This document shows, piece after piece, positions 5,651 to 55,753 of a DNA stretch of 64,000 nucleotides. Origin of the DNA: Bigelowiella natans CCMP2755. Taxonomy: Eukaryota > Protista > Cercozoa. The notes beneath the pieces were generated by a model that saw nothing but the letters and a program-made list of their open reading frames with translations, made no database searches and had not been told where the DNA came from. Each line of letters begins with the position of its first letter. Position 1 is the stretch's first letter. The DNA is taken from the NCBI GenBank assembly GCA_000320545.1, contig ADNK01000140.1:124001-188000 (forward strand). The letters run 5' to 3'. Both the position numbers and the translations under genes were made by a program.

Positions 5651-7084
5651 GTATATTTATGTGTGTGTACGTGTGTGTGAAGTAAAGACACAATGTATAA
5701 TATTAGCGACTACTTCGGCTACATAAATAATTAGGGAATAGAAGGTGCTCAGGCTTGGCAAGTATCTAACCCAGCGGTACTCCCTACAGTCTGCCTCCAA
5801 GCCTCCCTCGATATATTCAAGTAGTAGTCGTAGTAGTGCCACTATACTAGTACGAGTCATTGACTGCTGCTAGTGGTGCTGGTCTCGCATCAACAAAATG
5901 GTTTGTTTTTTCAGTATGTTATATGATGATGAGGATGATGATGATGACGATGATAATAATAATAATAATTATGCTTTTATAATGACGACAACTTTTCAGG
6001 GATGCTGGTGGTATGAAAGCAGTTAGGAAAAAGTCTCTTCTTCTCACTGGGCTGTTGGAGTACCTAATTGAATGTAAGATCGAGAAAAAGCTGGTGCGTT
6101 GTAGAAGAAGGGAGAATTGTGGACCGATTCAGGGGTGGAATGACTGAGAAATGCGTAGATTTCCTTTTCACAATGAAAGGGATGGGGAGGGAAATGAGGA
6201 GGGACTACAACAATCCCAGATGCCTCTGACACTAGTGTTACTACTACTACTACTACTACTACTACTGTTTCTGCTTTCTCTGCTGGACAAGCACGAGCAT
6301 GAGAACTGCTTATCTGAACATTATGTTCCTTCTTCTTTTAGTTGACATAATCAACCTTATTCTTCCGCTCCTTCCCTCGTTACAATGATGTACCTCCTAA
6401 GGCTCATATCATAACTCCAAGAGATCCAGAGAGACGCGGTTGCCAGTTGTCATTGCTTACGACGATGCCTGTGAAACCCGTCCATGAAAAGTAGTAGTAG
6501 TAAGACTATGTATTAGTGATGAATGATTAGTTGATGATGATGATGATGATGATGATGCTGAGAATAGTGTTAAAATTGGAAAATGAGCGGTAATTTTTCG
6601 AACCATAAAGAACAAGTAGTAGTAGAATCAAAAAGAAGAAACAACCGCTAAAAGATAGATCTGATATTAAAAAATGATGATTTATGGTGGCAAATAGTAC
6701 ATGCATGCATGCATGCATGTATGTATGTATGTATGTAGAACAGCACCTTTAGTTGTTGGTTGATTATTTTATAGATGTTAGATATACATGGTTTTTCTCA
6801 TATCCTCCTCATCCTCTCCTCAATCTTCATGTTGATGTTGCCTATGTCATGCATGTTTACAGACTCGAAGCAAAAGGGGTCATTGTAGACGTACGAGAAC
6901 CAAACGTAATACGCTTGGCACCCTGTCCCCTCTACAACACTTTCTCTGAGGTTTTCAGGTCACGACATCAGAGACTCGCTTGGATATAATTTATTATCTT
7001 CTAACATGAGTAACATATGTATGTAAATAAAAACATATATATGTAAATACACATGTATATATTAATAAATTTATGTATATTTAT

Positions 7085-7140
<56 letters not shown>

Positions 7141-7371
7141 TTATCTACATGTGTGTGTACATACTTCATCAAAATTTGCTCATCATTACTCAAACATCTA
7201 TTCAAAAGGTTATCATAGTACATAAAAATCTCATTACATGTGTTGAAGTGTGCGTAAATCACAAATGAATAAATGAATATTTTTGAGTCACATGAGACAA
7301 ATATTCTTCATTCATTTATCAGATTCGTAGAAATGCTGCAGAGAGCTCTTGTATCTACGTCAAAGCTCTGA
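2561..7371 (+). CDS. KYNU: Kynureninase (PLP-dependent), multi-exon
   Basis: Spliced exons give [74 protein letters not shown] (PLP lysine motif), [43 protein letters not shown]. Stop TGA at 7369-7371. Confidence 0.95.
5580..5680. repeat. Intronic (TA)n/(TG)n microsatellite
   Basis: Visible directly. Similar tracts lie at 7085-7140, 43925-43976 and 57265-57342. Confidence 0.9.
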
Positions 7372-8887
7372 GAGCAAATGGTTTAGTTGTGTGTCAGCAT
7401 GGTGTACATGATAGTTTCTGCTTCTGAACCACCACTGTGTGTTCGAATGTACCTGCTTGTGTTTGTTTCTGATGCTCAGTGTAAGCAAGTGTGTGAGCAT
7501 GCTAGCATGACATGTGTGAGCATGGCATGTGTGGATCATGCAATGTGCATGCTGCTGCAACGTGACATCCAGCAGCAGCACCCATGATCTAGATGATACC
7601 TGACACAAAATTGTTCTCGCCGCACGCTAGCATCTGCTGCACACAAAAATCCACCCAATATGCTCCTCGTGGCGCATCACGTCCAACAACGCACTGGACC
7701 ACAATTGTGTGTCACTGCAGCGCGGACTGCAGACACAGTTGTGCATGCGCACATGCACCTCTAGACCTGCGCTAGCCTGTACGTGCGCACATTGGCTCAT
7801 GCGCTAGCGTGCAGCCTTCCGTGGGCCTTTCATCTTCTTGTTCATTTTGCTCTAGCTAGTAGTGCAATGCTGGCTTGCTGCACATCTCAAGCTTTCGTGG
7901 TGATCTCACTGATGAGTGAGGAGGAAGTCTAGAAGTGGTGAGTTGGCACTTCTGACGATCCTCCGCCAGCTGCACCGCCGTTCTAGCGTTGGAACTTCTA
8001 GACTTCTTGTTCATGCATGTGTTCACTCATGCATGCCAGCATCGCCAACGCTAGAACGTGCACTTCTAGACTTGTGACAGATGGACAAGATTGCACCACA
8101 ATCGATCGACCCTGCGCAGAGCTCTGCTGGCGGATCAGGCACGTGCTGTGCTGTGCCTTCTCCACGCGTTTGCATCAGGTACGTTGTGCTCGCGGTGATG
8201 CGCTATGCACGCCTGCTAGCTGCTAGCAGGGAGCTAGACAGCGGCGCACACGTTCAAGCAAGGACAGAAGGCTAGAAGGCTGTTGACACCAACTCCATTG
8301 TTGCACGTTCCTGATGAGCAGGCAGCTCTTTGTCACAGTGATTTCATCCAACGCTAGAACGCAGAACGCGTGCTGATGAATGAGTGGCCCATGCATGCTA
8401 GCATGCTTGCCATCACTAGCTAGATCATGCTAGCATGCTATGGACAACGCACATGACACCACTGTGTCCATTCTTGCTAGTCTAGTAGTCATTGTGGACG
8501 CAATGTTCTTTGCACGATCAACAATGGACTTGTTTCATCGCTCTTGACAACAAGCTCAATGATCCAAGTCTTTGAAAAAGCTATAAAGATGGACACAATA
8601 CACACCGCACATGCAATGCATTCTAGCATAGAACATGATTTGTCTGTTCCTCTGAAACTGTGCTGAAAGTTAAACTTCTGTCTTGTCTTCAACATCGTGT
8701 TCGAGAGAGCGAAGGCCCACATGCACAAACTCTGGCCCAATTGATGTAATGAATGCATACTCGTATCATCTTGGAAACTTTCAGGGTGGAGAACAGTATG
8801 TAACAATCAGAGAAATACGGTATCTGTCTGTGTGGCTAAATTAGAGTGACCTCATAAGTTTCGCCTAAGCATCTCGACTATTCACAA

Positions 8888-11800
8888 CTATGAAAGAGTT
8901 AATTTCGAAGCTATTTTTTGAATGTCCGCCGGCTTGGCTCCTATGCATCCCGCCACAAACTTCTTAGCCTTGATTGCTAGCAAGAAGAATGAGCTTTTCT
9001 TGGAAGCAAATTTCTGATACAGAATTGCTAGAGCAAGTAATGTCGCAGCGGCACTTCCCTCATTGCCTGATTTTGAGGTAATTGCAGTAAAACCAGCATC
9101 TTTCCAAGCTCCAGTCACGACTGACTTAATTTTGGTCTCATCGGTGACATTCTGAAGTCCAAGCGTTGATGCTATTTGGAGCAGGACATTGCTCAGCTCC
9201 CAAGATCCATCTGACTTTTGAAGCTTAACAAGCTCACTAAACGCTTGTTCCGCCCCCTGAATTGTCACCACTTGCTTACCTCGCTTGCCTCTGCTCATCT
9301 TTTTTTCTTCCTTTTGCAGGCTCCGGAAACCTCCCAAACCTCCGATTAGCTCATCTTCAGCAGCATTATCATCGTCATCATAATCTTCTTCGCATTCCAT
9401 ATTCTTATCAAGCTTGACCTTCTCTAACATATTTTTAGGTTGCTGCTGTTGTTGCGATTGAGCAGGCATAGCACTAAACAAATCTAGTGATTCTCCTGCT
9501 GAAGGAGCGGGGGGTGGGGGAGCTGCTGAACCAGCAAATCCAAAGCTAGAAATATTACTTGAAGGCTGTGACCAAGATGAGTTCATAGCACCGATAGGAG
9601 CTCTTCCTCTTCCTCGAGCTCTTCCTCTTCCTCCTCCTCCAGGAGCTCTTCCTCTTCCTCGAGCTCTTCCTCTTCCTCCTCCTCCAGGAGCTCCTGGAGG
9701 AGCTGGAGGAGCTCCTCCGCTTCCTCCTCTTGATAAACGAGAACGACGGCCTCCTCCGTATCCTTGCATCCCATTCGTTGCTGAGTTACGAAAAGCTGAA
9801 CGAGGAGCTGCAGCCATTCTAGACCGCTCTTTATATAAGCACTTCCTGGGAGATTTACTCTTCTTCTTCCTACTCATCCTCATTAGACCTCTTGCTGGAC
9901 TCCTACTAGGACTTACACTTGTGCTTCTTGTGATCGCATCCTGACCATGTGCAATCGGTATCACATGCTTTTGTGACTTGGGTGCTTTTTGTCTCTCCTC
10001 CTGATTATCGTCGTCTTCCTTCTCCATGACAGCGACGAATGAGGTCTCTGATGACGCCAGGTTGTACTGAAGAGCGAGACGGCGAATCTCGTCTTTGTCC
10101 CGTTTAGTAGTGTTTGGCATGTTTTCGAGTTCGCGTATTCGAGACCGAGCTGCGAGTACATGCAATAACGTGCCCTTTCTTGGCTTAATGCTTTTGTCGA
10201 TCTGCACCTCAATCGTCTCATCATCTTGGTTTGCTGTGGACTTGAGGAACACGGTTGCTCCATCCCACTTTCCTTCCGTTGCTGCTACATGCGTAGCATA
10301 GACGAATTGACGCCCTGGATACACAGGTGGCGTGATCTCTGGGACCTGCTTGAAGCCCTTACTTTTGAGAGCTATGTCACCCCAGTCTACCTTTGTGTTG
10401 CACAATGGCGGCTGGAGGGCAGCGCATATGCTGCGCATGACCTGCTCGCTAATCTTCTCGGTTTCTCTCACCATTTCACACGTCCCGCGAGACTTGCGTG
10501 CGATGCCTTTGCACAAAGCTACAGACGCACCACTCCCAATTCCGAATGTGAAGATTCTTGTATCATGCGCATGCTCGGCAGCCATTCTGACGATAAGATC
10601 AGTGTTGCGGACCTCTCCATCGGTGAGGAGAAATACCTAATGTATGTTTAAAGCGATGGATGCAGCAGCAGCAGCAGGTAATCAGCTGAAAGAAGAGAGA
10701 GACATGGAGATTCTTTATCTCTGTCACCGTCTTTCGTTCTCATTATCCAATTCAAATGACAACAACAACAACTACAGCTACAACTAACAAACCTGCCGTG
10801 GATATCCTGGCGTTTGTTTCTCTGCCAATATATCGCGTAAGGGGTTCATAATGTTAGTCCCCCCCCTCGCATACATTCGTGATACGAAAGCTTCGGCTTG
10901 CTGCATAGTTGAATCGTCGTACTTCTGCGAGCTTTGGAAAAGTTTCTGGTAGTTCTTGTTGAAGGATACCATGTTAAAGATGCAGTTGGTTGGGAGTGAG
11001 CTAAGGAACAGTTGGAGCGTTTGCTTCGTTTGTTCCATACGTGAACCTGACATAGATCCTGAGACATCTACAAGGAAAATTACCTCGCAGAACATATCGG
11101 TATCTGGCTCCACCTGATGATAAACATAACAACAGATGATTGCGGTAATATTTATTAAGTCTTGCTATAATATCCTCGCTATCATTCGTTTGATCGGTGT
11201 ATTCCTTAGTAGATGAATGTATTTATCATTACCATCTCCCGGTTAAAGCTAATTTGCACAACGCGGGATTCTGGTGACGCTTGTTCCGCCTCCTCCTCTT
11301 TACCATCATTCCCTTTTTTCTTTTCTTTTAAAGTTGGAATCACGAATGTCCCATCGTTTGTTGAGTCATAGTCTTCAACAGCTGCTCTGGTGCTGTATGG
11401 TTCTTCTTGCTCTATGAGGAGAACGAACTCCTTCGTCAGCTTCTCCTTCTTCTCCAGCTTAATTATCTTGCGCATTGCTCCATCGTAAGCAGTTTTTGTT
11501 GAATGGGATGGCGTAGATATAGACGTAATGTTGGATGGCATTTGAATGTCAGCAGTCAAACTGAGCTCATAAGGAAGATCTTCATCATCGAGTCGTTCAA
11601 TTTGCCCCTCTTTTGCAGTAGGCTTTGTTTTCTTTTTCCTTCTTTCATTGTCCTTCTTCTCCGATGCTTTGCTTTGCCTTAAGATGTACTCTAGCTGCTG
11701 AGCTTCTGTCATGCGAGAGAGCTGTGATGCAGATAAAGTTCCCTCTTCTTGCTTCTGAACTCCCCTTTTCTCGGGAGCCGTCCAAGGGGCATAGCCGTTG

Positions 11801-12840
11801 GAGACGACTATAAATGGAAGTGAAGGGCACAATCGAAAAAAGGGTTCGAAAATCAAGTTGATGTGAGTCTGTTCAACTTATTTCGCCGGTGTTTGTGCAC
11901 ACGAAAATCTACTACGACGCAACTGAGATACGAATCTATTGAACAGAGCTACTCCTCCTCCTATCTATCTTATGCTCTTATGACTTGACAATGATAGCAA
12001 AGCAAGAACCATCGAAGCACTTACCAGTTGGAAATACAAAGCGGGCAGCAGGTCCTTCGGAATCGAGCTCGGAGACATATATTATTTTGATATCACAGGT
12101 TTCCTGGAAGGTAATATGTGAAGTAAATGATTCTGATGGCTCGTCATGATTGAATCACTAGTATTATGAGTTGTGTTAAGTGCCTTCGAGAGCAGATTTC
12201 CGATCTCGCAAACAAATACGTTTTCCGATTTGTCTTCTTTCTCGAGAAGAGCTGCTACTTGCTTGTTATTAACCGCGGTGTTATAAGTTTGCTTGGCTTC
12301 TTCGCGGCCTTGTACTTTCCCCTATAACACATGTGTTTTGTTTCGGTATTATACCCTGCTAACCTTTATTTTATGATATGCACCACCTTGATCGATTTCT
12401 TGCCTATCTTAGCTTCGAAACCGCACACGGCAGCATCTTCTTCCAATGGGAAGATATACTTCACCTTTCAGATTCCATAATTAACATGATGAGTGGGCAT
12501 ACATTAGATGTTAATAAATCTCTAACCTCCAGAGGTTTGTCGCCGTAGTTTGTGAATTTCTGCTTGACTATTGTTCTCGTACTGAAGTGAACGATTTCAA
12601 CCTTTGCCTGCACGCCCACGAGTGCAATCTAACATAAACAATAGAAGAGTTGTGATAGGAGTATCTTTCAAACAAACGAAGAGTTAGCATCTTTAAAACA
12701 AACGAACACCTTCGGCCTTTCTTTTGTCGGAGCTGTGACAAAAAGTCCGCACTTCCTTCGTAAGTTCTGCAAAGTGGAAAGAGTTAAAGATAAAGATCTC
12801 GATGATCCCACTCATTCAGCAGTACCTCAAATATAGTCAT
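8888..12840 (-). CDS. VWA5A: VIT + von Willebrand factor A domain protein (VWA5A/BCSC-1-like), multi-exon
   Basis: N-terminal exons give a VIT domain (QKFTNYGDKPLEVKYIFPLEEDAAVCGFEAKIG; GNLLSKETCDIKIIYVSEL). VWA MIDAS motif FLVDVSGSMSG, LLTDGEV and RIFTFGIG. Downstream LHVLAARSRIRELE, YNLASSETSFVAV and C-terminal LVKLQKSDGSW are typical of the family. Confidence 0.9.
9597..9692 (-). repeat. Tandem ~45 nt coding repeat encoding (APGGGGRGRARGRGR)x2, an RGG/RG-rich low-complexity segment
   Basis: Two near-perfect copies of ggagctcttcctcttcctcgagctcttcctcttcctcctcctcca on the + strand. Confidence 0.85.
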
Positions 12841-13050: not shown

Positions 13051-15118
13051 ATGTGGCAAAATTCCTTTGAGAAGAAGGCGTTAGTGTTGCAACGAGCAAC
13101 CGGCAACAACAAACCGCAACAACGACAACAAGAAGCAGTTTCTCGAGCTTTGAGGCATTTCTTTGTCGCTATCATTTTTAGCCATGCATTCATCGTGTCA
13201 ATTTTTTGCAGGGATTTGTCGTTGTGTGTGCCTTCTCAGCCATGTCTTCACATGACAAGCTCTGCCTTGCTTTGGGGGCCAGATCTGGTTGTTCCTTCGA
13301 CTGACAAAGAAATCGACAGGGCTTTCCGTCGAACCATTGTCCTGCTTGACAATTTTGCTGCTGTTCGCCATTCCAATTCCTAGTGTCAGTTGCAACCTGG
13401 TCACACTTCAACTGCACCAACAAACAACATCCATGCCAGCATGGCAACTTCATCCTTCGTGCGGCTCCGGCGCTTCAGATGGGTTGTCAACTGGTTTTTC
13501 ATGTCTCATCACCAACAGGGTGCTGACAAGTCCTTGCAACGAGTGTTGTTGAGGCTCTGCTGCACGCAAACGCCTGTCTCCCATGTGGTTCTGGCGCACG
13601 TGGATTTGATCAACGCTTTGTTCATTCTTCATTGTTCATTGTCAGGATTTCCTGGAGGATTTCCGAACTTTCTTCTTGGACTCTTTCATTCATGAAACGC
13701 AAAAAAGCAGAAATGGAAGTGCAATTCGCTCCGTCCAGGACGACCCCGGACAAAGCTGCCACACTGGCACACGTCACGCTGGCACGTGCACGCATGTGAG
13801 CCAACCCTGCTGGCTGTGATGGTCTGCAGCACGTGGACGCGCGCGCGCCCGTTGGAAAAGGATTGGCCGTCAGCTCGGTGTTTGTTGTCACGCGTGCTTC
13901 AATTGACCCCTGTTTGTTCCGACGAATCGATTGCGCGTGCGTGTTTTTTGCCCCTTCTTGTTCTGGCCTTCCCGCTCGACCAATTGTGAACAGCACGTGC
14001 AACGCAAGCACAAACAACGCACTGAGTGAACAAAGCGCTCGATGTCATCAGAGGAAAAGAAAGTGGAACGAACGAGACGGAAGCCACTTGTCAAAGTGAA
14101 GTGCGAGCTGGGTGCGCCGTGGCAATGCACGGTGAAATCAGCTGCACGCATTCCTGCCCATCAACCGACACGTGCGATGAAGGTTGGCATCAACGATGTT
14201 GCGCACTTTTGCCCAGAACGCGGGATTTGACAAAGCCCATTGCGATTGCAAAAGTTCAGAGGTCCAGAGCTGGAGAGGTGAGTCTGAGTCACAACTGGAA
14301 AGGAAGGACAGTTTTTCTGGGGTGTCCGGGATTGGACAAACCACCGGCTGCTGTCCGGCGTTTGAGCAAGAAGTGCTTCAAGACCGCCCACGTCCAGACG
14401 TCCTCGCACCCCACGTTCCTTTTGAGGAATGGACAGGAGGAGCTTGAGGTGCAGAACAGGTGCGAAACACCCGCACGTTGGTGTGGGTGACAGGGTGTGT
14501 GTGACCCCACGGATCCGGATGGATTCTGGGCGGACGACGGGGGTCATGGTCGGGAGTGTGCGGACCCCGCGGTGACCTGGTGGATGGTCAAAATCATCGG
14601 GTCCGGATGAGGTGCTTGCGACTGGGGGAGGTGTCATGCGTGAGGCAACAGCCATGGCCAAATCCCTTGCAGCATGCCAGCGTGCTGCTGGCATGGTTGA
14701 GTCGCGCGCACTTCGGGAGGCGACGACAAGGATTCAACAAGTCGCCTCCGAGGAACGCAGTGGGATCAATCAGGTCAGATTTGGCACGCAGCTAGACAGT
14801 TGTCGCACCAACACGAATGGCTGCCATTGCGTGCGCATTGTTTTGCAGGTGCTGAAACGTTCAACGGCTGTCAACATGCACCAACCATTTTGCCATCGGC
14901 AGCCATCGCATTGCCACGCAGCTCAAAATTGCAAAAATCCGCAACGTGAAAATTTGCCCACTGACGATGCACTGCTGCTGAGCGAAATTGCTAGAATGAC
15001 ATGGCAAAAATCATGGGCACAGCACGTGTCTTTCATCCAAATGATTTGCATCTTTGTCAAAACGACATCGCGTTTGCTCTCCACCTGCTGCATCAGGATG
15101 ACCATTGAAAATTTTTGA
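13051..15118 (+). pseudogene. Degenerate spliced gene relic, almost devoid of TpA
   Basis: + strand splice-like signals (ttttttgcag ~13211, ttgtcag ~13645, GAG|gtgagt ~14278, CAG|gtcag ~14774, ttttgcag ~14848). Exon-like reading frames contain no Tyr and are rich in His/Cys. It occupies the slot where strand alternation predicts a + gene. Original product not recognised. Confidence 0.5.
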
Positions 15119-15375
15119 TCACTTCGTTGCATCTGTCTGATTGCATGCACGTTTGATCACACATCAATGGACATGCTAGCATGGGTGTCCAAGTGTGTCA
15201 CATTGATGGAGAAACAATCTTCTCGCGAGAGGCAGAAAGCAAAAGAAATTCACAGCAGGACAAAACGTGAACGAAAATTCCCAAGTTGCAAAGTTGTGCA
15301 ATTTCAAACTCACATAGCTCCATGGCCATGTGATGTAGATGTGCGTCTTGCATGACTCCATCATCACCACTGTTT

Positions 15376-18300
15376 TTATGAACAAATCTTTTGGTCTGGA
15401 TCATCATATTTTCCCGCTTTGTCTTGGACGGAGGGCCTCCTTTCATCGTTAACTTTGTTTTCATCTTTTACAGCATCATTTTTTTTGCTGAATCTCTTTC
15501 TCAGCATTTGTTCGATTGCTGGCCAAAGGCCTATTGCGGACCCCACTGAAAGCAAAAGTTTGAGCAGCCAATGATTTTGCCACTGTCAACAAAATAGGGT
15601 GAATACATTGCATAGTTCTAGTACTTCTATGTTATTTTGAAGCTTCAAATGGTCATTAAACGCTTCAAATTGCGTAAATTATAATGAGCAACAATGTGCT
15701 GTGGTGGGCATAATGCCTGACTTTCGAAATTGTAAATTTTATGATTTTTTTTTAATGTTTCTTTGCTGTGAAATTGATTTTACATTTAAAGCAATTTCTT
15801 ACCTTTTCGACAATAGAGCTCAAAGTCCATGGCTTGTGTATTCGTTTATCTTCCACTTCTAACAATAGCTTGAGACAATCCCGCACTTTATGGAGTTCTG
15901 GGAGAGGATTTGAATTGGAATTCGAGGTGCATCCAGTGCAATAGCGAGAGGCCTCGTATACTCGTTTCACAACAACCCCGTTTTCAATTGGAAAGTCGGG
16001 GTAATTCCAGATCGGTTTAGCTCCTTCATTCTCCAAACAATTATTGCATTCCCCGATGTAACCCTGAAAACAATAAAGGTGTAATGGATGTGATGCCTGT
16101 TGTTGATGGCATTGGTAATGGTGGCGGTTGTGACAATTGTGATTGTTTGGATGTGCTTACAACCTTCAATCGTAGCAGCAGTTGGTAGTAGAAATTATGC
16201 AGGCCCTCATTATCTGCATCATGACATAGCCAAGAGCGAGCTGCTTCAAGCTCGGCTTTAATGTCATACCATGGGATATTGTTACTTTTGGCACAGATAT
16301 CACTACTGCACCACTCGCTACCACCATTGATGTTTTCGTAAATTTCATTGTCGTCATTCTCAGGAGACTTAAATTTAATGTCATCACTCACATCTCCTTC
16401 CTCGACTTCCTTTTCCTCTTCTTCACCTTGCTCTCCTCCATTCCATCCCCCCCTCATTTCGTCTTTTTCATCTTTTTTGTTGTCATCCCCTTCCCATTTT
16501 ATTGTTCTCCATTCTTCTTCCTCACCCATTAATGACTCCGTTTCACTTGCTAAACTAATAGGCATAAGAGTACGACGTAGCCACTGTAGGGCCTCGCCAT
16601 TTCTCGGGTTTCTAAATGCCGTATGCGTGGTTGGTGTCAAATGTTCATTCATCAGCGTGTCGTGCATCCCAAATAGAAAATCATTGAACTCTTTCTCCTT
16701 TTTGCGCAATGTATCAATTGCAATGTGCAATTCGTCATGTTCTTTCCCAGTATCGTCGTTGCGTACAGTGTTTGCCAATCCAAGAACCTGCGTTTCCGCT
16801 TCACGAATCTGATTAAGGTGCCCGATGTACCATTTGCAGTACCACTCCTTTTGGTACAAAGGATTTTTGCTAAGAGCATTCATCACTAGATTCATGGCGT
16901 CCACGCGCCACTCTTTCACAAAGGTTTCAATCTGCTCGTCGGGCATCTGTAGGAACTTTTGTTGCAGCATTTGGGACGTCAGATAACGATGCAAAAACAT
17001 GTCAAATACAAGGTGATGCATACCGTCACCGTCAAGAACCATATCATCAAATGCCTGGCCCACTCTTCTCTCTTTTACGGCAACATGTACTGGTAGTAGG
17101 TCTCTCCACAAGATATCCCATTTTCGTTGGGACATTAGTGAAAGCACATTCTCCTTTTTCCAAGGATCAGAATTCATGGGCACCATATAGTCACGATCAG
17201 ATTTTATATTCATCCGGTCGATCACAGTTCCTAACTGTGTCAAGATTCGAAAATCTGCAGCACATCCGTTGTGAGTTTCTATGGCTACATGTCTATTTTC
17301 TCTAGGAGCTAATCGCCAGTCTTGAGGATACGTGCATCGTCGATCTGAATGTTTTTGCACTATATGTACAAAACAAACGTTACGTGTCCAATAATCCTTA
17401 TATGAGTCAACCATCTCACACCCAACATTACATGGGCCGGTGTCGCCATCTTGTTTGCCAAAAAAATCGAGAATGGCTCCAGCTCCCATAGTCTGGACTC
17501 TATCACTAATTGCTGTGATTTTCTTCTTTATGAGCTTATTTGATTCTGCTATTGAATGTGCGCAGTCACTAACCTTTCGACCAAAAAAAAAATTCATCAT
17601 GTGTACATACAATCGAGGTTATCAAAACAGTTATAAATTTTAATTATTTTTTTATTGAATCACACAACTTGTGCAATTTCACAACGCGCATTTAGTTACC
17701 AGTTTGCTTGGTTGGAAGTGACTGCGTTTGAGTCCTCGTGCTTCCCACTCCTTTTTGAAACCTTTCTCAAGATCTTTGCCTTCCTTCTTAGTGTGCTTCC
17801 CCCTGTTCTTCTCCTCTCTGATTTTATGAGCATGATCTAGAGCCTTTACGCGGGTAAGCTTCTTTTCTCTTTCAATGCGTTGCATGATCGGCTGGAAATA
17901 GTGGACAGCATCTTTTAGATGCCCATTTGAACGCAGCAGATCTATTTCTACATCGATGGAGGATTCCTTTAATCCCTGTTCTCTTCTCTTCCTATGGAAA
18001 ACTTCAGTTTGTTGAGCGAAACTGCTATCTTTGTATGCAGCTGCAGGCTCTGTGATGACAAGCCGCATGAATTTGATTTGTTCCACCTCCTCTCTGTTCA
18101 TCGGAGCAACGCATTTCCCGTTTGGCCAGGAATCTGCGCAATTCTTTGAGCTTTGGATCACGCCAAAACGACCTTGGCCATCCTTGCAAGTTGGGTCCGG
18201 GATACCGTCTGCATCACAGTCCCTGCATTCGAACAGCTTTGGTAAGTGCATGTTGATTCAAACAACGCTCTTGGAACATCAAACATGGGGTGAAATTTGT

Positions 18301-18424
18301 CTATGAATGCTTGGCACCTTATTTCGAAGTCAGCTCCTTCGTGTGAGCACCATCCATTAGCTACCTTACATGTCTTTGCTAGCAGTGCAACTGGAAGGAT
18401 TGCGACGAGGATTAACCTTGCCAT
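15376..18424 (-). CDS. Secreted hypothetical protein with an N-terminal small Cys-rich domain, multi-exon
   Basis: Signal peptide MARLILVAILPVALLA. GT-AG introns join ORFs 18158-18424, 17679-18251, 16041-17612, 15752-16036 and a last exon ending ...DQKICS* (TAA 15376-15378). Confidence 0.7.
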
Positions 18425-19212
18425 GGTGTTCAGACCTTTCGTGTGAATTCCCCCAAGATGTGTAACATCGCAGCTGATATCCTGTTATCTAGTCTGTCTT
18501 AGAAGTGATGCACAAAAGAGGAATATCTGACGTTAAAGAGATATGCAACAAGAATTTGATTACAATACGTGAAGAACAACTGCAATTCCCTGCATACCTT
18601 GCTGTTCAACAATAATGGTCCACTCTTCTCGTACAGACTCTCTCTCTCTCTCTTTCATTTATTCTCTGGAAATCCTAGGAAATCCTGTTAGATCTAGATA
18701 TCTGTTATTATTTCCAGGAAATCTCTGTTAGCTTTTTGCCCAAACAACATCATCGATCATTTTTTAGGCAAATTTGCCTGAAATCACGCTACCTGTCAAT
18801 CAAACGAAGAGAAGGAGCTTTTCCTGTGGTCGGTTGCTTTTGACGCTGATGTAGCAAATATTCGAGAGACAAGAAGAATAAGGTAGACTCTTATGTAAAA
18901 TGGCCTGGGTAGAGCAGACACCATCAGCAATCCCTCCATTTATGCAAGATTTGTTTATTTGGCATCATTGTTCCGGCAAGGAGTAAATGTACCGGTAGGC
19001 ATCGATCTCTACATAGCAGATCATGTGCATGAAAAGCCGTGCTGCAGAAGCCGTGCTGGATATCTTTTTCGGAAATCAATTTCAAGATCCGAGAAGCCTT
19101 AATCTGCGCTAGCAGGTAGGGTGCACGTAGAAGGCATTGTGCTGCTGCAGTTTACCTCATCTCCGGAAGGTGAATTTTGCAATTGTAGGTCGAAGCATCT
19201 GAAGAGACCACG

Positions 19213-21647: not shown

Positions 21648-22683
21648 CAAAAATAACTTGTTGATTCAGCTGATACCAGTACATAACAGGAAAAGGCAGC
21701 AGGCGTCGGTCAAGTGGCATTTGATGTCAAGCAGCCCGAATACAGGTCACGAATTTGAAATATAGATGTACATTGCGTACGAGTCATGACTGTCATGACT
21801 TATTCTACGAGCGAAGCAGCAGTGAAAATCTGTGCTGATTAAGAGCTTTGGACGTACATTACGATGTAACACCTTCTTATTTTACTTGCAAGTATTTAAT
21901 AAATTGGCCAATTTCATAGTTACTCTGGGCTTGTGTGTGCATTGCTGTGCTACTCACATTTCTAGCGTTGTCTGCATGTATGTAGACGACGCTTTGCAAT
22001 AGCTCCATATATTAGGACATCACGACTGTTACGTTGAAAAACACAATAATTTCATTGCATCTGTCTATTTCACATTTGTTATGTCGTGGTGCATTGCATA
22101 TACCATCGCACGTTGTGCTTAATTGGCTTGCGTGTTCCCTGCTAGCAACTGCAACGCTACACTAGGATGACAATTCCAAAATTTTGACACATTCATTACA
22201 TCTGTCTCTAGGTCGATCTGCACTATAGTGCAAACGCTGTGCGCATGCATAGCACACAAGCGTGACGTTCTTCTAGTCTTGTTGCTGCCATTTACATTTG
22301 TAATTTGTCTTTGTACAGTTCATTAGCACAGTCATGCGCGCGAAATTGGCATTGCACCATGAATTTAAATGTGTGTCAAGTCATGACCTGCACATGCGCG
22401 TGTACACATGCATGCACAAAAGCACACATTGTGTGACTATGTGAATGTGTGTGCATTGTTGTTGTTCTTGATGTTTTTGCTGTTGCTGTACGTTGTTGTT
22501 GTCATTGATGATGATGATGAGGAAGATGTAACGTGTGCGGCGCGTGTGCAGAGACTTGCAGCTTGATTCAGGACTGCTGCTGTGCAATTTATAAAGTTCA
22601 GAGTTCGTTCTCAGGAAACAAAAAAAATGTTTGCTTAAGAATATTGTAATATTACAAGAAAGTGTGCGCGTGTGTAAAAGAAT

Positions 22684-24939: not shown

Positions 24940-25682
24940 ACGTACTACATTTCTGGTTCATTATGAGTTTAGTCGATGAGAGTAAGTGACATACGACACA
25001 CTGTGTCACAGAAAAGCATACTATGTACCATAGTGGTTCCCACAATGCCTCCATGTGTTCGTTCTACATGCACAGATTTCACATTAAGTCTTCTTCTTCA
25101 TTCCACATCATCGCATGCAATTCTCTCGCATTGCATTGCATATCATGGCAGTGACCTACTGCTAATTTGTTTTGCGCTGCTTAAACATTATCGCAGCCAG
25201 GATAATCATCAGACCGACTGGAAATATGCATGGAGCACATACACGTATGATGTTCACTGCACATATGGCTATGGATTTTGTGATATGTACAAGAATGAAT
25301 GTGTCGTGCATTGATGTATGTAGTGGTAACTGAGCAATGGCGCGCCAAAAAATTTTTTTTTCGCAGCTTATTACGAACATAATAAACGCACGAGATGGCA
25401 TAAGCGCGTCGATGCATCATTGCATCGTATGCCACTGTTGACATTCAATGGTGCATCTGCATGTAACTATGTGGCATCACGCGATGCGTTATGCCCGTGC
25501 AGCATGCAGAAGCCTGGGATACTTCCTTTTCTGATCCATAATTCACGCCATGTTGTGCCAGAATACAAATATATCACACAGCGCGATTTCTTAATGACAA
25601 GTTATCGACATCGCGTGAAAACCATGCATAAATTTGAGTCAGTGCCGTTAACCTTGTCAACAGACCGTGTGCATTATAGCTG

Positions 25683-27689: not shown

Positions 27690-28606
27690 GGAAGGACGGC
27701 AAAAATCAATTGTCTGTCTCCTCCGACGAACACATAGACGACAAAGAGATACCAAGTCTGATGTAATCCTAAGCAACACATGAGGCATTCGTCGAAATTT
27801 TGGAATCGAGAATGACGCAATTTGTCGTTGCATTGTGCTTCATCACATCGCATCTCGATCAAAGCTCTGAAATGTGAACGTGCGATTATGAGCACATCTT
27901 GACATGCATGCTAGCATGCATACACTAGTGCATGTTATTTGCACCTAGCTTTAGACACAGCCACAACTGTGCATCGCATCATCATCGCATTCTAACATTG
28001 GATAGCTTGACAGTCTAGCAGTACTTGCATCACATACATAGCTAGCTAGACAGATGAGATGTGATTGCGGTCATCACGCATTCGGGACGAAGACACAATC
28101 CAGAACGCTGCGCAAGCTAGTTGCATCAGGCAGGACAGACTAGCAGAGGACATGCACGTGCTAGCGTGCTAGCGTGGCAAATGCATGCATGCTAGCATGG
28201 CAGACACGTGCACCGCCACACGTGAAACAAACAACATTACGACTAGATTGGTCCGACATCACTGTGCTAGTGTGGTCTATCTAGTGGTTCAAGTTTGCAC
28301 ACAGCAGTAGACTAGTTGACAATGTGCTGGCATAGATGTGCCACAACGAATGACCCAGTCTAGCAGTGTGTCTAGATGATGTGTGAATGCTCTGGTGCAT
28401 AGCATGTACAATTGTATGTGCATTGGAAAGAGGAAAGCACATTTGACTTTGACATGCATCCTTTCTCGGGCACATGGTCATGACAAATTGCACCACAATA
28501 ATGTCCAGACGGTCAGTGTAGGCTACATATGAATGATATTACCTCAAGCTTTGTGCATACTGTGCAGATCAGGGCACGCGCTGTGTTTTCGCTTAGCTTC
28601 ACTTGT

Positions 28607-29414: not shown

Positions 29415-30084
29415 GGGATTGCTTTTGTTTTCTGGCGGCAAGGGGCTTAAAAGAGCAACCCAACCGGTATGAGAGACAACCCACGAGAGGACTACAGCCG
29501 GTACTCCAACTTTGAAACTAAGCATGGCACGATTCCTTGTCTTTTACACAGATTGCTTGTCATCTCTCCAGAAATGCTAAATCTACGACAAGGATTTTTT
29601 CTGCATCGTCGACTTTTCTCTTTCAAGCTGCCAAAAATCCTTGCGGTATTGAGTTCGTCAAGACGCAAGCAAGAAACATGTTCCATTTGTCCATTTGTTC
29701 ACACGGATAAGTGGTACCACTGTGCTCTTTGCTCAACCTTTTGACCGCAGTTGAATGTTCGCTTTCTGTGTTTCGTGCTTTGCAAATGTCTTGTGACGTT
29801 TTAGAATTAGCCTGAAATGTGTCCAGTCGCAATATATTTATGCCCTTTTACTTCAATATAAATGTATTCACATATTTTACCAGATGACAAGACGTTACAG
29901 CTTTTTTACTGAGAGTACTGTTAGTACTACATGTAAATAAGTTATAAATAAGGGCGTCCGATAACTTTCCATTTCGATCCCCTCCTCGATAGCCTATGGC
30001 GTAGTTGATTCAGCGATCCCAAAAGGGGGTAGGCAATCAGACGGCTGCAGTTTGTGGCGGTCATTGCGCTGCTGAGAAGGAACT

Positions 30085-31621: not shown

Positions 31622-33444
31622 CCAGAATCGCTGAGACATCGCGAGTGCCAGAGGCAGGCGTGACGATGCAATGAAAAGGGCTTGGTGAAGAGTAATCTTA
31701 GTTTTAACTACTTCCCCGACTGTCACCGGATCGAAATTTAGTTGTGATGTCGCATGTGTCACAAGATCAGATCCACATTGTCGTGATAAATATACAATTG
31801 GCTATCTAGCTCTCCCTAATCTCCACGTTGGCTACTGGAGGCCACATAGGCACACTAGCCTGGCCTAGTTATAGTGGCTAGTTGCTGGGCAAGTGGGTGT
31901 AATTGCCTCATCCTCTTTTTGCTAGCTACATTGTAGTTATAGTCAAGTCACGTTACATGCAGCACAGCACGACTCGTTCTAGCGCCTGCTTTGTCCCTCA
32001 CCATTGTGCGCTACCAGCTAGCCAATGCTGATCATTGCCAGCGAAACTGATTGCGCACTCAAGATGATGATGACGATGATGATGGCAATGATGTTGAACA
32101 TGGCAGTGATGGTGATGGTGGTGATGAGCGTCCACAAAAGCAGCTGACATTTTGATGAACGCAAGACACTTCGTGGAACATTGATCATGATGACCAACAA
32201 CGCTTTGTGTTTTTTCATACCTCCAGATGAACAGGTGAAGGTGGTGATTGACCGCACCTCCTAAACGTTGCAAGACGTTTGCGTCGCACAACAGAAACAA
32301 CGACAATGAACTGCGTTTCCAAAACGTCTTGAACTAGCTTCAGTGAGGACTGACTGGTGAAACCAACATGATTTCAAAATTGGCATTCTGACCATTGTGG
32401 AAGTGGAGCTATGAAGGCCATGCTAGCATGTTCGTGCACGCGCGTGCGAACACATGCAGTCAGCACACACGTTCTTCGTTCTCACTACGTGCACACGTTC
32501 TTACACCCACAGCTGCACCAAATCAGCACACATGTTCTGTCACTTCTATGTGCACTTGCAGCACACGTGCTCCACACGTGCACACGTTGGAAAGCAAAGC
32601 GTCGTGAAAGAAGTTGCAGAGTAGGGCGCGCGCAGCGGAAAGTCGCGGCCACTAACGTGATCTAGTGATGTGCAATAGCCGCTTGGGCGTGCATGGCGTG
32701 GCGCAGCTAGGCAGCGGCGCTGTTGGGTCCTCATGTCCTTCGTGTGACCTGCTTGACTGCAGCGCTGTGCGTAACAAATGGGAATCGTGGGCAGTGTTTT
32801 GTTGTTTGGTGCAGTGAACGCATGCACGTGGTCGCTTCGATCGTGAGCCGCATGCACGCGTGCAACAATGGCGACAGTGATGAGCCCCAAAGCTGGAAAG
32901 CTAGAAAGCTGAAAGCGCCAGACTGGCAGGTCAGAGCCCGCGATCGATCAGGCGGCCGACGACCACACCATTGAACTTCCTCCCCTGTTGTGCACGCACA
33001 CGTGCGTGCACAACACGCATGGCAAGGTCCACACTCAGATGTCTCTGGACGTGGGCGACTGCTAGACTGACTGGGCACAACACGTACTGTGCATTTGCAA
33101 TTTCATAGCATTGTGCTTGTGCTGTGTGCACTTTTTGTTGACACTCTTGCATGTGTTGGTCACACGTGCAGCACACATGACTTGATTAGTTGAAGGTGAC
33201 ATTGCATGACCGCAGGCGTCCAGAGCCTGCATGCTGGCATGGCATGCATGACATGTCTAGCATGTCTAGATGCCTAGATCTAGAGATAGATGCATGTACA
33301 TGCATGTGACATGCGCTGGGTCTAGAGGTCTCTAGACATTGCTAGACTGGTCTGGCAGTCTGTTGGTGGTGCATGCCATGATGCCGCGCGCAGTGATTTG
33401 ATGACAGGCAGTTACACAATGATGTCTTGACTTTGCATGCGAAT

Positions 33445-35771: not shown

Positions 35772-38363
35772 ATGGACGGTCGGCAGGCTTCCCTTCTCCT
35801 TTGCAGTAGTATGGCTCTGTTTGCCTCCTACTCATTATCTGGCACAACACTTCGTGCACCCATTCGGAGAACCATTACAAGAAATGCGCGAAATCCTCAG
35901 ACAAGACTAATTTCCGCATTGAGGTTGACTGGACCCTGCCGAGCACAAGCACGGTGTCGGCGTAGCATTCCTCTCGTAAAATGTTCCACCTCTGCAACGA
36001 CGACTGTTGACAGCATCCTCCAAACGGCAGACGATTTTCCAATGCTGATTGACGGTGAACGACCTCTGATCATATATTGTGAGTTACCGGTGGGTAGCCC
36101 TGACCGATGATGTGCATATGAATGTACGACGTATTCATTAGGAAAGCTTAGAACTAAGGGCTCCGCCGGAGTATCACCGGTTATCAATCCTGCGACTGAG
36201 GAGCCCTTTGCCTATGCACCCTCTGCTAGTATCGATGACCTTAACGACGCCGTGATGGCTGCTAAAGGCGCGTTCTCTTCCTGGAGTACTCTAGACTACG
36301 AAAGCAAGGTCGCTTATTTGGAGAGATTCGCCTTAGAGGTAAAGAAAGACGCAGAGAATATCGCAACAATTCTCACGAAGGAACAGGGTAAACCATACGC
36401 ATCTGCACTGGGCGAAATTAAAGCTTCGGCAGATCGCATTGCGACAGTTAGCGCTCTCGGGCCATTAGAAGCGGAGGTGTTACACGAAGATGAGAAAACA
36501 CGAACCGAAGTGCATCGAGTGCCTCGGGGAGTAGTCGCAGCTATTACTCCATGGTTTGTCATTATTAATCAATAAATAAATTCTGAATGTGATGCTATTT
36601 TCACTCATTATCCAACACAGATGATCTCATGTATACTTGCCACATCAGGAATTTTCCTGTGTTGATTGCTGCTTCGAAAGCAGCCTCGGCATTGCTGTCC
36701 GGCAACACAGTTGTTATCAAACCCTCACCGTTCACTCCATTGTCTACTCTTGCTCTCGGTAAGGCTGCAGAACGGGCAGACCTCCCTCCAGGTGTCATCA
36801 ACATTGTCTCTGGGGGAGACGACCTTGGAAAGGTTTTCAATGTCTTTGGTGGTCGCAATATGCATGCATGCATGCATGCATGTGTGTGTGTGTAATCTTT
36901 TTGGACTTAAACGGCATCGTAATTGCACGAGTATGTCATCAGGCCCTTGCTGAGCACAAAGATGTGAGACACATCAGCTTCACAGGATCCGTTGCTACCG
37001 GGAAGAAAGTTATGGCGACTGCAGCAGCTGGATTAAAGAGAGTGACTCTTGAGCTCGGCGGTAATGATGCGGCCATTGTACTGGAAGACGTTGACATCGG
37101 ACCTGCGGTAAGTAACCAGCGTAACAACTGCCGCACTGGTATTTGAAATGTAGATTATTCACAGTGAGGTTTTGGAGTTCTAAGTGCAGCAAAAGTGCTC
37201 GTGCAGCATGCATGTTGTTGAAAAATGTGTTGTCGTTTGTGCTAATGATTGTTCGAGAATCAATCATACACAATATGATGATGATGATGATGATGACGGC
37301 AGAGCCGCAAAATCTTCCAAGCAAGCATGGCAAATACAGGCCAGGTACCATTATCTTTAATCTTGTAGTCTAGTAACAACTCCAATGGAAGAGTTCTGGC
37401 TGTTGACTCATAGGTTTGCACCGCAATCAAACGATTGTACGTGCACGAAAAAGTCTTTGATCCTCTCGTGGAAGCACTGGTACGACATCATATTCAATTG
37501 TACAAAATTCCCTCCGATTATAATATCTGCGGATGTGTGATACTAACATCCAAGGTCGCACATGCGAAGAACGCAACGGTCGGTGATGGGCTTACGAAAG
37601 GTGCTTCATATTGTCATTTAAACTCAACCAGATACTCTTAGATTGCGTGCATTGCAAGAAGCAACGACTGCTTCACTACGGTAACCACAACTAACTACCG
37701 CGACATTCCTTTTCCTCCCCCTCTTCGTCGTTCTTCTCCTCTCCCCACGACAGGGGTAACACACGGTCCTCTAAATAACAAGATGCAGTACAATATCGTC
37801 ACAGGGCTCCTCGATGATGCCAAACAACAAGGTGATGATGGGGGTTCTGGGGGGGGTATACTTACCAATCAAGAATCGAAGTACGAGCAGCATGGATATA
37901 TATGTAATGCATGCATGCGTTGTATATCGTCCTAGGTGCGAAGGTGCTTTGTGGGGGCGAGGCACCAGAAGGGCCCGGTTACTTCTTTCCTCCGACACTC
38001 GTCACCGATGTGAAGGTGGGCTGATTAGCTGCTGCTGCTGCTGCTGCTGCTGCCTCATCTTAAGAACGACGTGTGCCCCTGGAACGAAGACGACGATGAT
38101 GTCTAATGCACAAATTTGAGAAGTGAAAAGTCGCGAAGATTGAAAATATCAACTGAATTACGATAATGACTATCATCTTCTCCAACGTGACTAGGAAGGG
38201 GTTCGCTTGGTCGATGAGGAGCAGTTTGGCCCTGTGTTACCTGTCATTCCCTTTACGGGTAGACAACAAGAAGAAGAACAAGAAATATCAATGATATGAT
38301 GAAAGTCTCTATCTCTTCTTCATTCCTGATTCGAACCGCTTATTATTACTGCCATTTCTAGCC

Positions 38364-39264: not shown

Positions 39265-40292
39265 CCACAGCAATCATGAACTACGGCTTGAGTAATTGAG
39301 GATCCCTGCCCCTTATGCCAAAGCATTAGCATGCAGGCTAGTTGCTGTGATCATGCTACCCCAATGTATAGCATTTGTATCTGAGAATGATTAAAGAAAC
39401 ACTGTAGAATAATCAATTTGTTCTATGCAAGCATAATTATATATAATGACTTTTTTAAAAGCGGCATACACATCAGCACTTGCATATTCAAGACTTGAAA
39501 TCAATCCGCTACTTTTTCTACATATGTACTACATGTATGAGATGGATGTATTGATTGATTTAAATTGGATTAACGGTCATCCTAATGTACCTATGCAACG
39601 TGGCGTGTACTACATGATGTATATGTATGTTTGTTGAAAAAATTTAATTTGTTCATTACATCCGTCTCATATGTATGTTTGTATAGTTCTGCTACTCGTT
39701 GCATCCCCTGCTGCTTATACGGCATCATCGTACGCATTTTGGCATAAAGCGCTACTTTTTAGCTGAATTTCACAAGTAGGCCGCAGCTTATGCATCGCGT
39801 GCTCTGAGTATACTAGTATATAAGTATAACTAATGCATCGCACGGCAAACACATAAGTCCCAGCCCACATCACATTGTCCGCTGTACTAGCTGTACGTGC
39901 AGGCAGCGGTACGTACGTAGCTCAAGCGATCATCTGCATTGTTGCGGCGCACTATGCACGAGTACATGCAAGTCGGTCGATTCGGCATCTAGGGCATAAT
40001 TACATTAGAAAGATAAGCTGCTAGCGTTGGCCAAGCAAGAGACATCGACAATGTTGGACTACACAATGCACGCATACTGTTTCCATTGCGAGCGTAGCGT
40101 TGGCGTTGTTGTTGTTGTTGTTGTTGTTGTGTGTTTGCGTGTGTGGCCGAGCGCTCGAGCCCATTCGTTTTTTGAGTGCGAGCATCATATGCTCGAGTCT
40201 CCTACAAAGACTTAAGGTACACACGCCGTTCATGCTTATGGATATCATTGACTATATACTAGTCTGTCCGAGGTTGTACATGCATATACCGC

Positions 40293-47165: not shown

Positions 47166-47978
47166 GCAGGAGCACCATGACTTCACCCGCTTGCAACTGC
47201 TCGTTTGAACACAGAACTGGGATGTCAACTTCCGCGACTCGAACATTTCTCTGTGTTTGCTGTGCGAGTCATGCATGTCGTAGCATAGTAAAGCGATCAT
47301 CGTGAGCCACTCTGACGCAGCTGTCGTGTCGTATCAAGTACATAATCCCTCGTCTTGCATGCATGAACGTTGGAGTATTTTGCATGTACCACACGCACAC
47401 ATAAATACGAGACGCGGATGTAATGAATGTGTCAAATTCTTTCAACTAGCCATCATCCTAATGCAGGTTTGCAAAGGTGAATGTGGGTAGCTTTGAACAA
47501 CAGCTACATTGGGATGCGACCATTGAAAGAATTCAATTTGTTCATTACAACAATGGGATGCACAGTCATTATTTCCGTCTCACAATGACAACTGCATCCT
47601 ACGACTGCCTGTCGTCTACACCTACATGCTCATCATGCGCAGTAGCCATGCGTACGTGAGCACATAAGTGATTAATGTTGCAATTATACATCTAGCAGAT
47701 GCTAGCGACTGTGCTACTATTCTGTGCGTGCTTGTGTGACATTGCGGCTATGCAAATACACACTCAACATGCACGCGCCTCATAGGAACGACTATAATAA
47801 ACGCCTTCGGATGTTTCGAATGAGCAATCCTCTATATCATAGACATAGCATGTCACAGCAACCATTGGCCAAACTAAATCATAGTGTTTGCTGAGTAAAT
47901 GTTCCAGCGTCGTAGCCTCGTTTTCGACTCAAAGATGTAAGACTCATGCACACACATGCACAGTGAGTTTGTGAATAT

Positions 47979-48014
<36 letters not shown>

Positions 48015-48121
48015 TTATATATGAATCGAATCTTAGCTCCTGTAACGCATGCTTGTGTGGTTGAGCCATTTTCGATGCGATAATGTCCTCTCATATTCAG
48101 CTATAAGTCCTTGATCAAGTG

Positions 48122-50820: not shown

Positions 50821-51198
50821 ACTCTCGTTCTCCTGGCTTTAAGTAAGCAATCATTACTTATTTGAATAATTACATGTACACATGTGCTATGTACACAGTA
50901 CACACAAAAAGATTACACCTAGCACACAGGGTATCTAAAATGTGTAGACGCAGTATTACCACATCTATAGCCTTGCATGAGACCAAGCTGGTTTTGCTTT
51001 CTTTCAAACATTCACATGAGACAGATGTAAGTTGTGAAGCGATTAAATTCCTAGCCATGCAAAGCAGCGGCTACAGCGCTCATGCTGTGTCTGTCATCTT
51101 TCTCCCAATGTAAATGTGATCATCGTCATGGCAGAAACATCACGTACTATAGAACTAGAACATCATTCTATTGTTTGTGTACGCAAGCCATAGCCATG

Positions 51199-51611
51199 GA
51201 GTTGATGACGGATCAGCAGCCCCCATTCCCTCTGATCCTGAGCAATGGCGACTTTGCAATGTGCCAGCACCACGAATTTTCATTTTTTTTTCACGCGGAC
51301 TTCGACATTCGCTTCTATCTCCTGCGCCTGCGTAGCTTGAAGTTTTGGGGGACTTGTGCAAGCATTTTTGCATCGCACATGCATTCAACGAGAGTTTCCG
51401 CCACACTTTCATGAAAATTCAATTTGTCTTGGCTCTTTCAATTTTCAAAGCCTGTGTTGTCCCACAAAGATGGACAATCAGCAGATGCAGAGCAAGCGAA
51501 TGCCGAAGTCCGTCCGCATAAAAAAAGAGTTGAAATTGAACGCGCTGGATTTTTCATGGAAAGTCGTTGTCTGCACTGCAAAAATGGGGCCTGCTGATCC
51601 ATCATCAACTC
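51199..51611. mobile_element. MITE-like non-autonomous DNA transposon (413 bp)
   Basis: Terminal inverted repeats 51199-51227 and 51583-51611 are identical at 27/29 nt (GAGTTGATGAyGGATCAGCAGsCCCCATT), with patchy similarity extending ~120 bp inward. Flanked by a direct ATG repeat (51196-51198, 51612-51614). Confidence 0.75.
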
Positions 51612-51974
51612 ATGCATCTCTAGATCTAAACATGCACAACACACATGTGCACGTGTCTAGCGTCGGCGACATCACCATGCTGCACATTATGCCTGCATGC
51701 TCGCTATGTGTGTGTGGCCACAATGTAGCGCATGTGTATACTCTACTACGACTTTGTCAATCAAATAGCGATTCACATCTCACATCTACATAGCTTAAGC
51801 TTGGGTAACGTAATGTAATCTAATCATAATGTTGTACATGGGCATCGTTTCATCCACCACAGTTGTCATCACTTTTCGTCTGTGTGATACATGATCTTTC
51901 ATTGCAGAGTCTACCTTGCAGTTGCCAGTGAAGTGTGTTAAACACACGGCAGTATAATTCTACTAATTTTGCTG

Positions 51975-55714: not shown

Positions 55715-55753
55715 TGTAGATCTGCTGCCTATGTATGTAGATCTGCTGCCTAC
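55715..55753. repeat. Short tandem duplication tgtagatctgctgccta x2 (21 nt period)
   Basis: Visible directly. Confidence 0.8.

Follow-up and report, generated by a model that had tools for sequence, protein, structure and literature searches.

Fungal RIP, which targets CpA, is a process by which the host marks repeats with a dinucleotide scar. The closest described system comes from Bigelowiella natans itself, where viral and transposon DNA undergoes TpA to TpG/CpA hypermutation at a rate about 1,000-fold above background, and where the preprint describing it proposes an ADAT2/3-like deaminase as the candidate agent (bioRxiv 10.64898/2026.01.13.699255). At the ends of genes, two other systems come close: in Leishmania, base J is reported to govern termination where gene clusters end (PMC4150806), and short inverted repeats are reported to cluster near poly(A) sites in yeast (PMC6420913). 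Here, we describe a 64-kb window of the B. natans genome (64,000 nucleotides, the single stretch from which all our results come), in which the gaps between tail-to-tail genes carry an alternation of purines and pyrimidines and, in part, a loss of TpA that appears to spare CTAG.

The window is intron-rich eukaryotic DNA (GC content, 43.6%) with 17 RNA-supported introns of 58-217 bp; an 18th RNA joint was dropped because of its non-canonical ends. One RNA-supported intron, at 12104-12183 on the minus strand, fits GC-AG ends. Intronic compound microsatellites at 6701-6737, 36860-36882, and 7085-7144 pass from (TATG)n into (CATG)n and from (TA)n into (CA)n, which is what a TA-to-CA/TG change plus slippage would give. 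A Pfam scan that covered 150 of the 607 frames of at least 50 aa named genes for kynureninase, a VIT/vWA protein, an EF-hand protein, peptide deformylase, two cyclophilins, aldehyde dehydrogenase, a methyltransferase, a VTT protein, and a BET protein. In the Gly/Arg-rich part of the VIT/vWA gene (9615-9724), a 45-bp tandem duplication is mostly missing from environmental transcripts, a length polymorphism. The leader peptides are presumably of the chlorarachniophyte type, and a Lotharella cyclophilin is 70% identical to a cyclophilin of the window, which is itself present in EukProt. Amorphochlora, as described in the source that we consulted, is unlike the window, with 27% GC and 546-bp introns (PMC12730881).

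Gene models comprise 19 from an ad hoc spliced predictor, which recovered 14 of the 17 RNA introns (all 17 being in its training set), and an open ORF at 62149, giving 20 host genes; those at 45.3-47.2, 56.2-61.3, and 62.1-64 kb are defined by ORFs and models only. Neighboring host genes lie on opposite strands at all 19 junctions (p = 1.9e-6 if the junctions are independent), a count that leaves out the intronless ORFs of an insert at 12.9-18.5 kb. This architecture, seen across 749-64000, may be genome-wide. An earlier note on this DNA had listed ten intervals as convergent spacers, and all ten are indeed stop-to-stop gaps between converging genes, with opposing strand-specific 3′ RNA reads (plus on the left, minus on the right) at seven. 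Pfam backs 50821-51974 on both sides and 47166-48121 and 55427-56224 on one side each; the remaining flanks of the latter two come from ORFs and gene models. Convergent gaps (743-1,823 bp) are longer than divergent gaps (91-844 bp; p = 0.0015), the limits of the latter being set by hand from ATG to ATG. The features discussed below are as follows (strand given where one applies; R/Y, purine/pyrimidine alternation; o/e, observed/expected).

1-748: convergent gap, cut by the window edge; R/Y 0.658, TpA retained (1.19)
7372-8887: focal spacer, a convergent gap between the kynureninase gene (plus) and the VIT/vWA gene (minus); Pfam KYNU_C, VWA, and VIT
7498-7509: 12-bp palindrome CATGCTAGCATG; exact copies also at 123, 8394, 8426, 15172, 27907, 28188, and 32419
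7500-8640: TA-poor, CTAG-rich core of the focal spacer, past both mapped RNA ends; 25 of its 37 TpA lie in CTAG
8640-8887, minus strand: 3′ UTR of the VIT/vWA gene; poly(A) at 8639 and 8645 (16 and 12 T-tailed reads)
13200-15300: insert free of TpA other than CTAG, in a non-convergent gap; 4 TpA in 2,101 bp, all CTAG
15755-18480, minus strand: intronless ORFs of 525, 192, and 134 aa, including the ORF at 16044-17618
21648-22683: convergent gap between a SAM-domain gene (plus) and the EF-hand gene (minus); MITE arm at about 22150-22207
24940-25682: convergent gap between the peptide deformylase gene (plus) and an unnamed gene (minus); alternating, with no CTAG
27690-28606: convergent gap between a cyclophilin gene (plus) and an unnamed gene (minus); TA-poor, CTAG-rich core at 27800-28500
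31622-33444: longest convergent gap; TA-poor core at 32000-33400
39265-40292: convergent gap between the aldehyde dehydrogenase gene (plus) and an unnamed gene (minus); TpA retained; MITE-like element at about 39539-39669
47166-48121: convergent gap between an unnamed gene (plus) and the Methyltransf_4 gene (minus); MITE-like element at about 47396-47549
50821-51974: convergent gap between a cyclophilin gene (plus) and the VTT-domain gene (minus)
51199-51611: TA-poor fold-back element within the preceding gap, whose ends are inverted over 29 bp (93%) and which has further inverted arms inside; TpA o/e 0.13, R/Y 0.47
55427-56224: convergent gap between the bromodomain-BET gene (plus) and an unnamed gene (minus); TpA retained
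39539-39669, 47396-47549, 22150-22207, and 15087-15138: MITE-like family with inverted arms of about 55 bp; six arms aligned

The spacers had been described as domains rich in palindromes, dense in CATG, TGCA, CTAG, GTAC, and GCATGC, and distinct from divergent gaps and exons. As to word density, the enrichment stands: compared with the rest of the window, spacers contain per kb 9.1 versus 2.0 CTAG, 14.5 versus 4.7 CATG, 16.1 versus 5.4 TGCA, and 4.9 versus 2.5 GTAC, a 2- to 4.6-fold higher density of the four tetramers in the gaps. It does not extend to every word in each spacer: CTAG is absent from 24940-25682, GCATGC occurs only once in three spacers, and GTAC is at 1.9/kb in the TA-poor spacers. 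We compared the 10 spacers with 9 divergent gaps and 14 per-gene intron pools, with microsatellites masked. The density of the four tetramers per kb (30.8-60.6 in spacers, 0-21.5 in divergent gaps, and 9.9-21.9 in intron pools), R/Y alternation (0.559-0.658, 0.445-0.522, and 0.464-0.539, respectively), and GpC o/e all separate the spacers from the other classes without overlap (Mann-Whitney p of about 3e-4 and 5e-5), and a profile common to spacers, divergent gaps, and introns, which would have refuted the earlier note, was not seen. A leave-one-out dinucleotide model called all 10 spacers positive and all 9 divergent gaps negative. When a model trained on all spacers was used in a 400-bp scan, 65 of 67 segments inside spacers were positive versus 23 of 493 outside, and 8 of these 23 fall in the insert, at 13.5-15.4 kb. 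The focal spacer itself has R/Y 0.573, CC 0.52, and 25 CTAG.

Pooled over the spacers, dinucleotide o/e is 1.58 for CA/TG, 1.52 for GC, 1.16 for AT, and 1.07 for AC/GT, and it is 0.84 for AA/TT, 0.78 for TA, and 0.54 for CC/GG. As a general label, "palindrome-rich" is only partly apt, since CACA/TGTG (log2 1.58) match CATG (1.63) and TGCA (1.58), and the palindromic words CCGG, TCGA, ATAT, and TTAA are depleted. A smaller palindrome excess is nonetheless real: against a per-spacer second-order Markov model, palindromes number 100 versus 71 ± 10 at arm 4 and 18 versus 6 ± 2 at arm 6, and the excess is about 2 to 3.5 SD once MITEs and the 12-mer are masked. Introns have no such excess beyond second-order composition. 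The core feature of the spacers is alternation plus CTAG.

Loss of TpA follows a distribution of its own. The grading among spacers that the earlier note had claimed is there; a general deficit is not, as pooled TpA o/e in spacers (0.78) is not below that of divergent gaps (0.72; p = 0.97). The loss is limited to the cores at 7500-8640, 27800-28500, and 32000-33400, the fold-back element at 51199-51611, and the insert at 13200-15300, where it is strongest (o/e 0.03) and lies outside any convergent gap. Nor do the data support the same mark in every spacer, because three spacers retain TpA (o/e 1.12-1.19) yet alternate fully. These TA-retaining spacers combine R/Y 0.617 with TpA 1.14, whereas the insert, which serves as an internal control, combines R/Y 0.513 and GpC 1.17 with TpA 0.03, that is, the TA-loss layer with little alternation. 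Alternation and TpA loss are two separable layers. When the published cut-offs are applied (over 1 kb, TpA o/e of at most 0.43 and CpA+TpG of at least 1.52), five 1-kb stretches at 13251-15750 and two at 32001-33250 are detected. The other nine spacers fall short, with non-CTAG TpA o/e of 0.33 and 0.45 in two of them, and it is the CTAG retained in the focal spacer that hides it from the TpA filter. The DNA runs X1 and X4 contained no TpA-type differences in the seven spacers covered, which is uninformative at this length; three differences between TA and TG/CA near 7356-7413 were not counted (one contig, depth 3.2).

CTAG accounts for 55 of 99 TpA in the cores (17 of 33 in the core at 27800-28500 and 14 of 30 in that at 32000-33400) and for 4 of 4 in the insert, compared with 35 of 1,417 in introns and 5 of 246 in divergent gaps. 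Its share of TpA climbs from 0.02 to 0.29 the farther one moves from the stop codon, and non-CTAG TpA declines with gap length (Spearman -0.67, p = 0.05, nine complete gaps). Judging from these counts, the TpA mutator appears to spare CTAG, although CTAG is not immune: the window reads CTGG at one CTAG of a repeat copy. The o/e of CTAG is 2.3 in pooled spacers, 4.4 in cores, and 0.5 in the insert; thus, sparing alone is insufficient for the cores. CTAA/TTAG is depleted (36 versus 67 expected), and one MITE arm has CTAG where its relatives have TTAG, hinting that these words may feed into CTAG.

The direction of TpA change can be read from the MITE-like family. Among its six aligned arms, two sites are TG in one copy, CA in another, and TA in the others, which fixes the direction as TA to TG/CA; for the TA-loss layer, the suggestion of a mutational mark therefore stands. 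The extent of conversion follows the location of the copy, with TA kept at 5 of 5 sites in the 39.5-kb arm and at 0 of 5 at 15.1 kb (alignment read by eye). The 39.5-kb copy, which shows multicopy depth at 39643-39673, is flanked by TA, which we take to be Tc1/mariner-like. On foreign DNA, TpA loss holds for the fold-back element at 51.2 kb and for the repeat-bearing insert. The repeat in the latter (13505-13642; about 140 bp, with a short tandem tail), which we label SINE-like, is found at several hundred times single-copy depth, with further copies at 1430-1589 of L001 and 135-270 of L002, and a metagenome copy retains TA where the window carries TG/CA. At three sites the window copy has CG, in contrast to the TG of many other copies, which points either to decay of CpG in those copies or to a second step from CA to CG. 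The long frames that 13200-15300 has on its two strands are likely artefacts of lost TAA/TAG stops, and Pfam returned nothing above cut-off for them. The intronless ORFs at 15755-18480 are likely a foreign fragment: the 525-aa frame shares 57% identity with the C-terminal half of an unnamed environmental protein of 648 aa, and Pfam, PHROG, Atlas, and viral contigs gave it no identity.

Recognizable transposon pieces make up 819 of the 10,719 bp of spacers (8%) and carry a weaker signature (R/Y 0.53, CC 0.82) than the spacers with these pieces masked (R/Y 0.598, CC 0.53); thus, alternation was not imported by transposons. Pfam found no match in the 20 core-region ORFs tested, which lends no support to the cores as relics of transposons. 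Rfam gave no matches at gathering score in the whole window. A metagenome scan for related DNA returned two short loci only, and one viral-contig scan returned none; the 49 loci from another viral-contig scan were set aside as chance, since only one of them matched the window by blastn at E ≤ 1e-3 (41 bp at 29766-29806, not the MITE). Helitron ends consist of CTAG followed by T, and we rejected them as a source of CTAG because only 36 of 186 flanks are ACTAG/CTAGT. Insertion of the hAT type produces 8-bp target duplications, and spacers have only two primitive 8-bp tandem duplications.

Transitions cannot alter the R/Y pattern, and therefore a TpA mutator cannot make alternation. In our simulations, which were rough random searches with 170-380 trials per model, TpA, CpG, CHG, or dipyrimidine transitions gave alternation of 0.49-0.51, never above it, and a deviance of 1,655-2,358. 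With one non-transition ingredient added (CC/GG transversions, dipyrimidine transversions, inverted microduplication, homopolymer contraction, or (TA)n seeding), alternation reached 0.56-0.60 and deviance 545-1,100; fitting a first-order model to the spacers themselves gave 583, and the sampling floor is about 150. Most fits preferred TAA-to-TAG changes. No ingredient was singled out and none came down to this floor; no simulation fits palindrome and tandem-duplication counts jointly, and CTAG o/e in the best one is 1.9, versus the observed 2.3 (pooled) and 4.4 (cores). Direct tandem duplication with transitions did not raise alternation, and inverted duplication alone overshot palindrome counts 2- to 4-fold. 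UV damage combined with transcription-coupled repair was also rejected: introns show the reverse of the predicted sense-strand dipyrimidine deficit, a comparison confounded by pyrimidine bias.

We favor the reading that the spacer composition is a neutral mutational scar beyond gene ends, produced in part by a TA-to-CA/TG mutator that appears to spare CTAG, and we give it a probability of roughly 55%. Since host genes alternate in strand, promoters share the short head-to-head gaps and 3′ ends the longer ones, an arrangement shown for most genes and predicted from models for three. Small transposon pieces, from two families or more, lie in these gaps and may have gathered there because this DNA is the least constrained. 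Composition and copy alignment show that TpA was changed to TpG/CpA locally, in transposon pieces and in the centers of the longest gaps, with CTAG surviving; the agent could be the A-to-G deaminase of the preprint, guided by silent chromatin or RNA. Alternation would need a process other than transitions that acts on untranscribed, unconstrained DNA; the most likely one is transversion that removes GG/CC, together with slippage or fold-back microduplication. No function would be required. On the other hand, laboratory mutations outside viral regions of B. natans are transition-dominated in the preprint's spectrum (Ts/Tv of 7; bioRxiv 10.64898/2026.01.13.699255); thus, high GG/CC transversion was not observed there, which counts against the scar reading.

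An unlikely alternative is that the spacers are selected two-way terminators or boundaries, at which a factor would bind or modify alternating DNA and CTAG palindromes such as CATGCTAGCATG and shield CTAG. The signature is present in 10 of 10 gaps, and at 100-300 bp past stops it is strand-symmetric (17 word pairs, all p > 0.1), as a DNA-level process also predicts; strict gene alternation would make two-way termination necessary, and the CTAG excess exceeds every neutral model tried. The 12-bp palindrome fits this idea in part. Its eight exact copies (seven in four spacers and one at 15172) and its 10 matches at up to one mismatch (0.26 expected) form a recurrence that composition does not explain, the seven spacer copies comparing with 0.04 expected under a third-order spacer model. 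One copy begins 6 bp past the end of the plus-strand RNA contig, which stops at 7492, and at the other end of the focal spacer the signature starts right past the mapped poly(A) site, where the next 299 bp have R/Y 0.59, GpC 1.70, and eight CTAG (one gene). The yeast inverted repeats near poly(A) sites offer a precedent. However, the exact 12-mer is found in only 4 of 10 gaps and also in the non-convergent insert, one gap has no CTAG at all, and junctions within alternating runs are near equal (AC 175, AT 176, GT 157, and GC 185), as in random mosaics. Converging polymerases also produce positive supercoils, which disfavor Z-DNA and cruciforms. Finally, the published ATAC-seq account of B. natans describes almost no open chromatin away from promoters (PMC8887012), which also agrees with the scar reading. 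It is also conceivable, if rather improbable, that defense is tied to termination, in that CTAG-centered palindromes may carry a mark or factor that halts polymerases and at the same time protects CTAG against the TpA deaminase.

It is equally doubtful that we are looking at the ordinary composition of any 3′ flank, i.e., distal UTR plus downstream cleavage region, unrelated to convergence. All host 3′ ends in the window are convergent, and therefore convergence is not separable here from being a 3′ flank. Furthermore, the signature sets in about 100 bp past each stop codon and peaks at 200-400 bp, and coarse RNA depth shows that some UTRs extend at least 150 bp into the gaps, as is clearest at 27871-28537, so that part of the signature is transcribed; RNA is near zero at 32540-33206 in the longest gap. 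However, the sense-strand bias expected of an RNA-level motif is absent, and the mapped UTR at 8640-8887 is without the signature (R/Y 0.48, GpC 0.83, no CTAG). The 300 bp after the non-convergent ORF ending at about 15755 likewise have R/Y 0.478, although this ORF is probably not a host gene. If its cause is mutational, this reading overlaps with the scar reading.

A modified base of the base J or dinoflagellate hydroxymethyluracil type, which would sit on convergent gaps, cause T-to-C change, and signal termination, is very unlikely. TpA-to-CpA change can be taken as T-to-C change of a T that is modified, and the Leishmania role of base J cited above would fit; however, TA loss peaks outside convergent gaps and is absent from three of them, and Bigelowiella is unnamed in the literature that we found on JBP, hydroxymethyluracil, and thymine. 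The base J analogy drawn in the earlier note also fails on gene architecture, as the genes here are single, alternating in strand, intron-rich, and separately polyadenylated rather than polycistronic. That the spacers all descend by decay from a single repeat family can be practically dismissed: a MITE-like family is common to three spacers and the 15.1-kb part of the insert, and some short words of the spacers are found again on other contigs in a DNA run, but the recognizable pieces are few and weaker in signature, only five pairs score above the null maximum (195) in transition-tolerant alignments, of which four do so by a narrow margin or owing to the MITE, and the focal spacer, with its opposing 3′ reads, has single-copy DNA depth.

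The TpA process itself is known. That it extends to spacer cores, that it follows a CTAG rule, that there is an alternating domain, and that genes alternate strictly are four points that we did not find in the literature searched, which was mostly open access and did not include the 2012 genome paper. If the scar reading is true, the B. natans TpA mutator reaches sub-kilobase patches between host genes and not only large viral inserts, and the sparing of CTAG would narrow down the candidate enzyme or protective mark. The alternating domain, together with gene alternation, allows a genome-wide test of whether DNA past gene ends has its own mutation and repair regime or encodes termination.

How does this locus compare with the systems described earlier? 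It shares with the published B. natans hypermutation the loss of TpA, the gain of CpA/TpG, and a local, patchy occurrence on transposon-derived DNA. Unlike there, the affected DNA here includes sub-kilobase cores between host genes, and CTAG appears to be spared; the main text of the preprint contains neither "CTAG," "trinucleotide," or "context" nor gene orientation (bioRxiv 10.64898/2026.01.13.699255). With kinetoplastid base J it shares a distinct DNA state where opposing transcription units end, as that system is described in PMC4150806; there, units are polycistronic, the modified base is proven, and JBP enzymes are known, whereas here genes are monocistronic and the evidence is compositional. 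The yeast inverted repeats likewise represent a palindrome excess at gene ends, but in the published description they are rich in ApT/TpA or A/T tracts and nucleosome-poor (PMC6420913), whereas in the B. natans spacers AA/TT is depleted, and GpC and CA/TG dominate. In comparison with fungal RIP, this would again be a host process scarring repeats, in the opposite direction: C-to-T change in RIP raises TpA, whereas here TpA falls and CpA/TpG rise.
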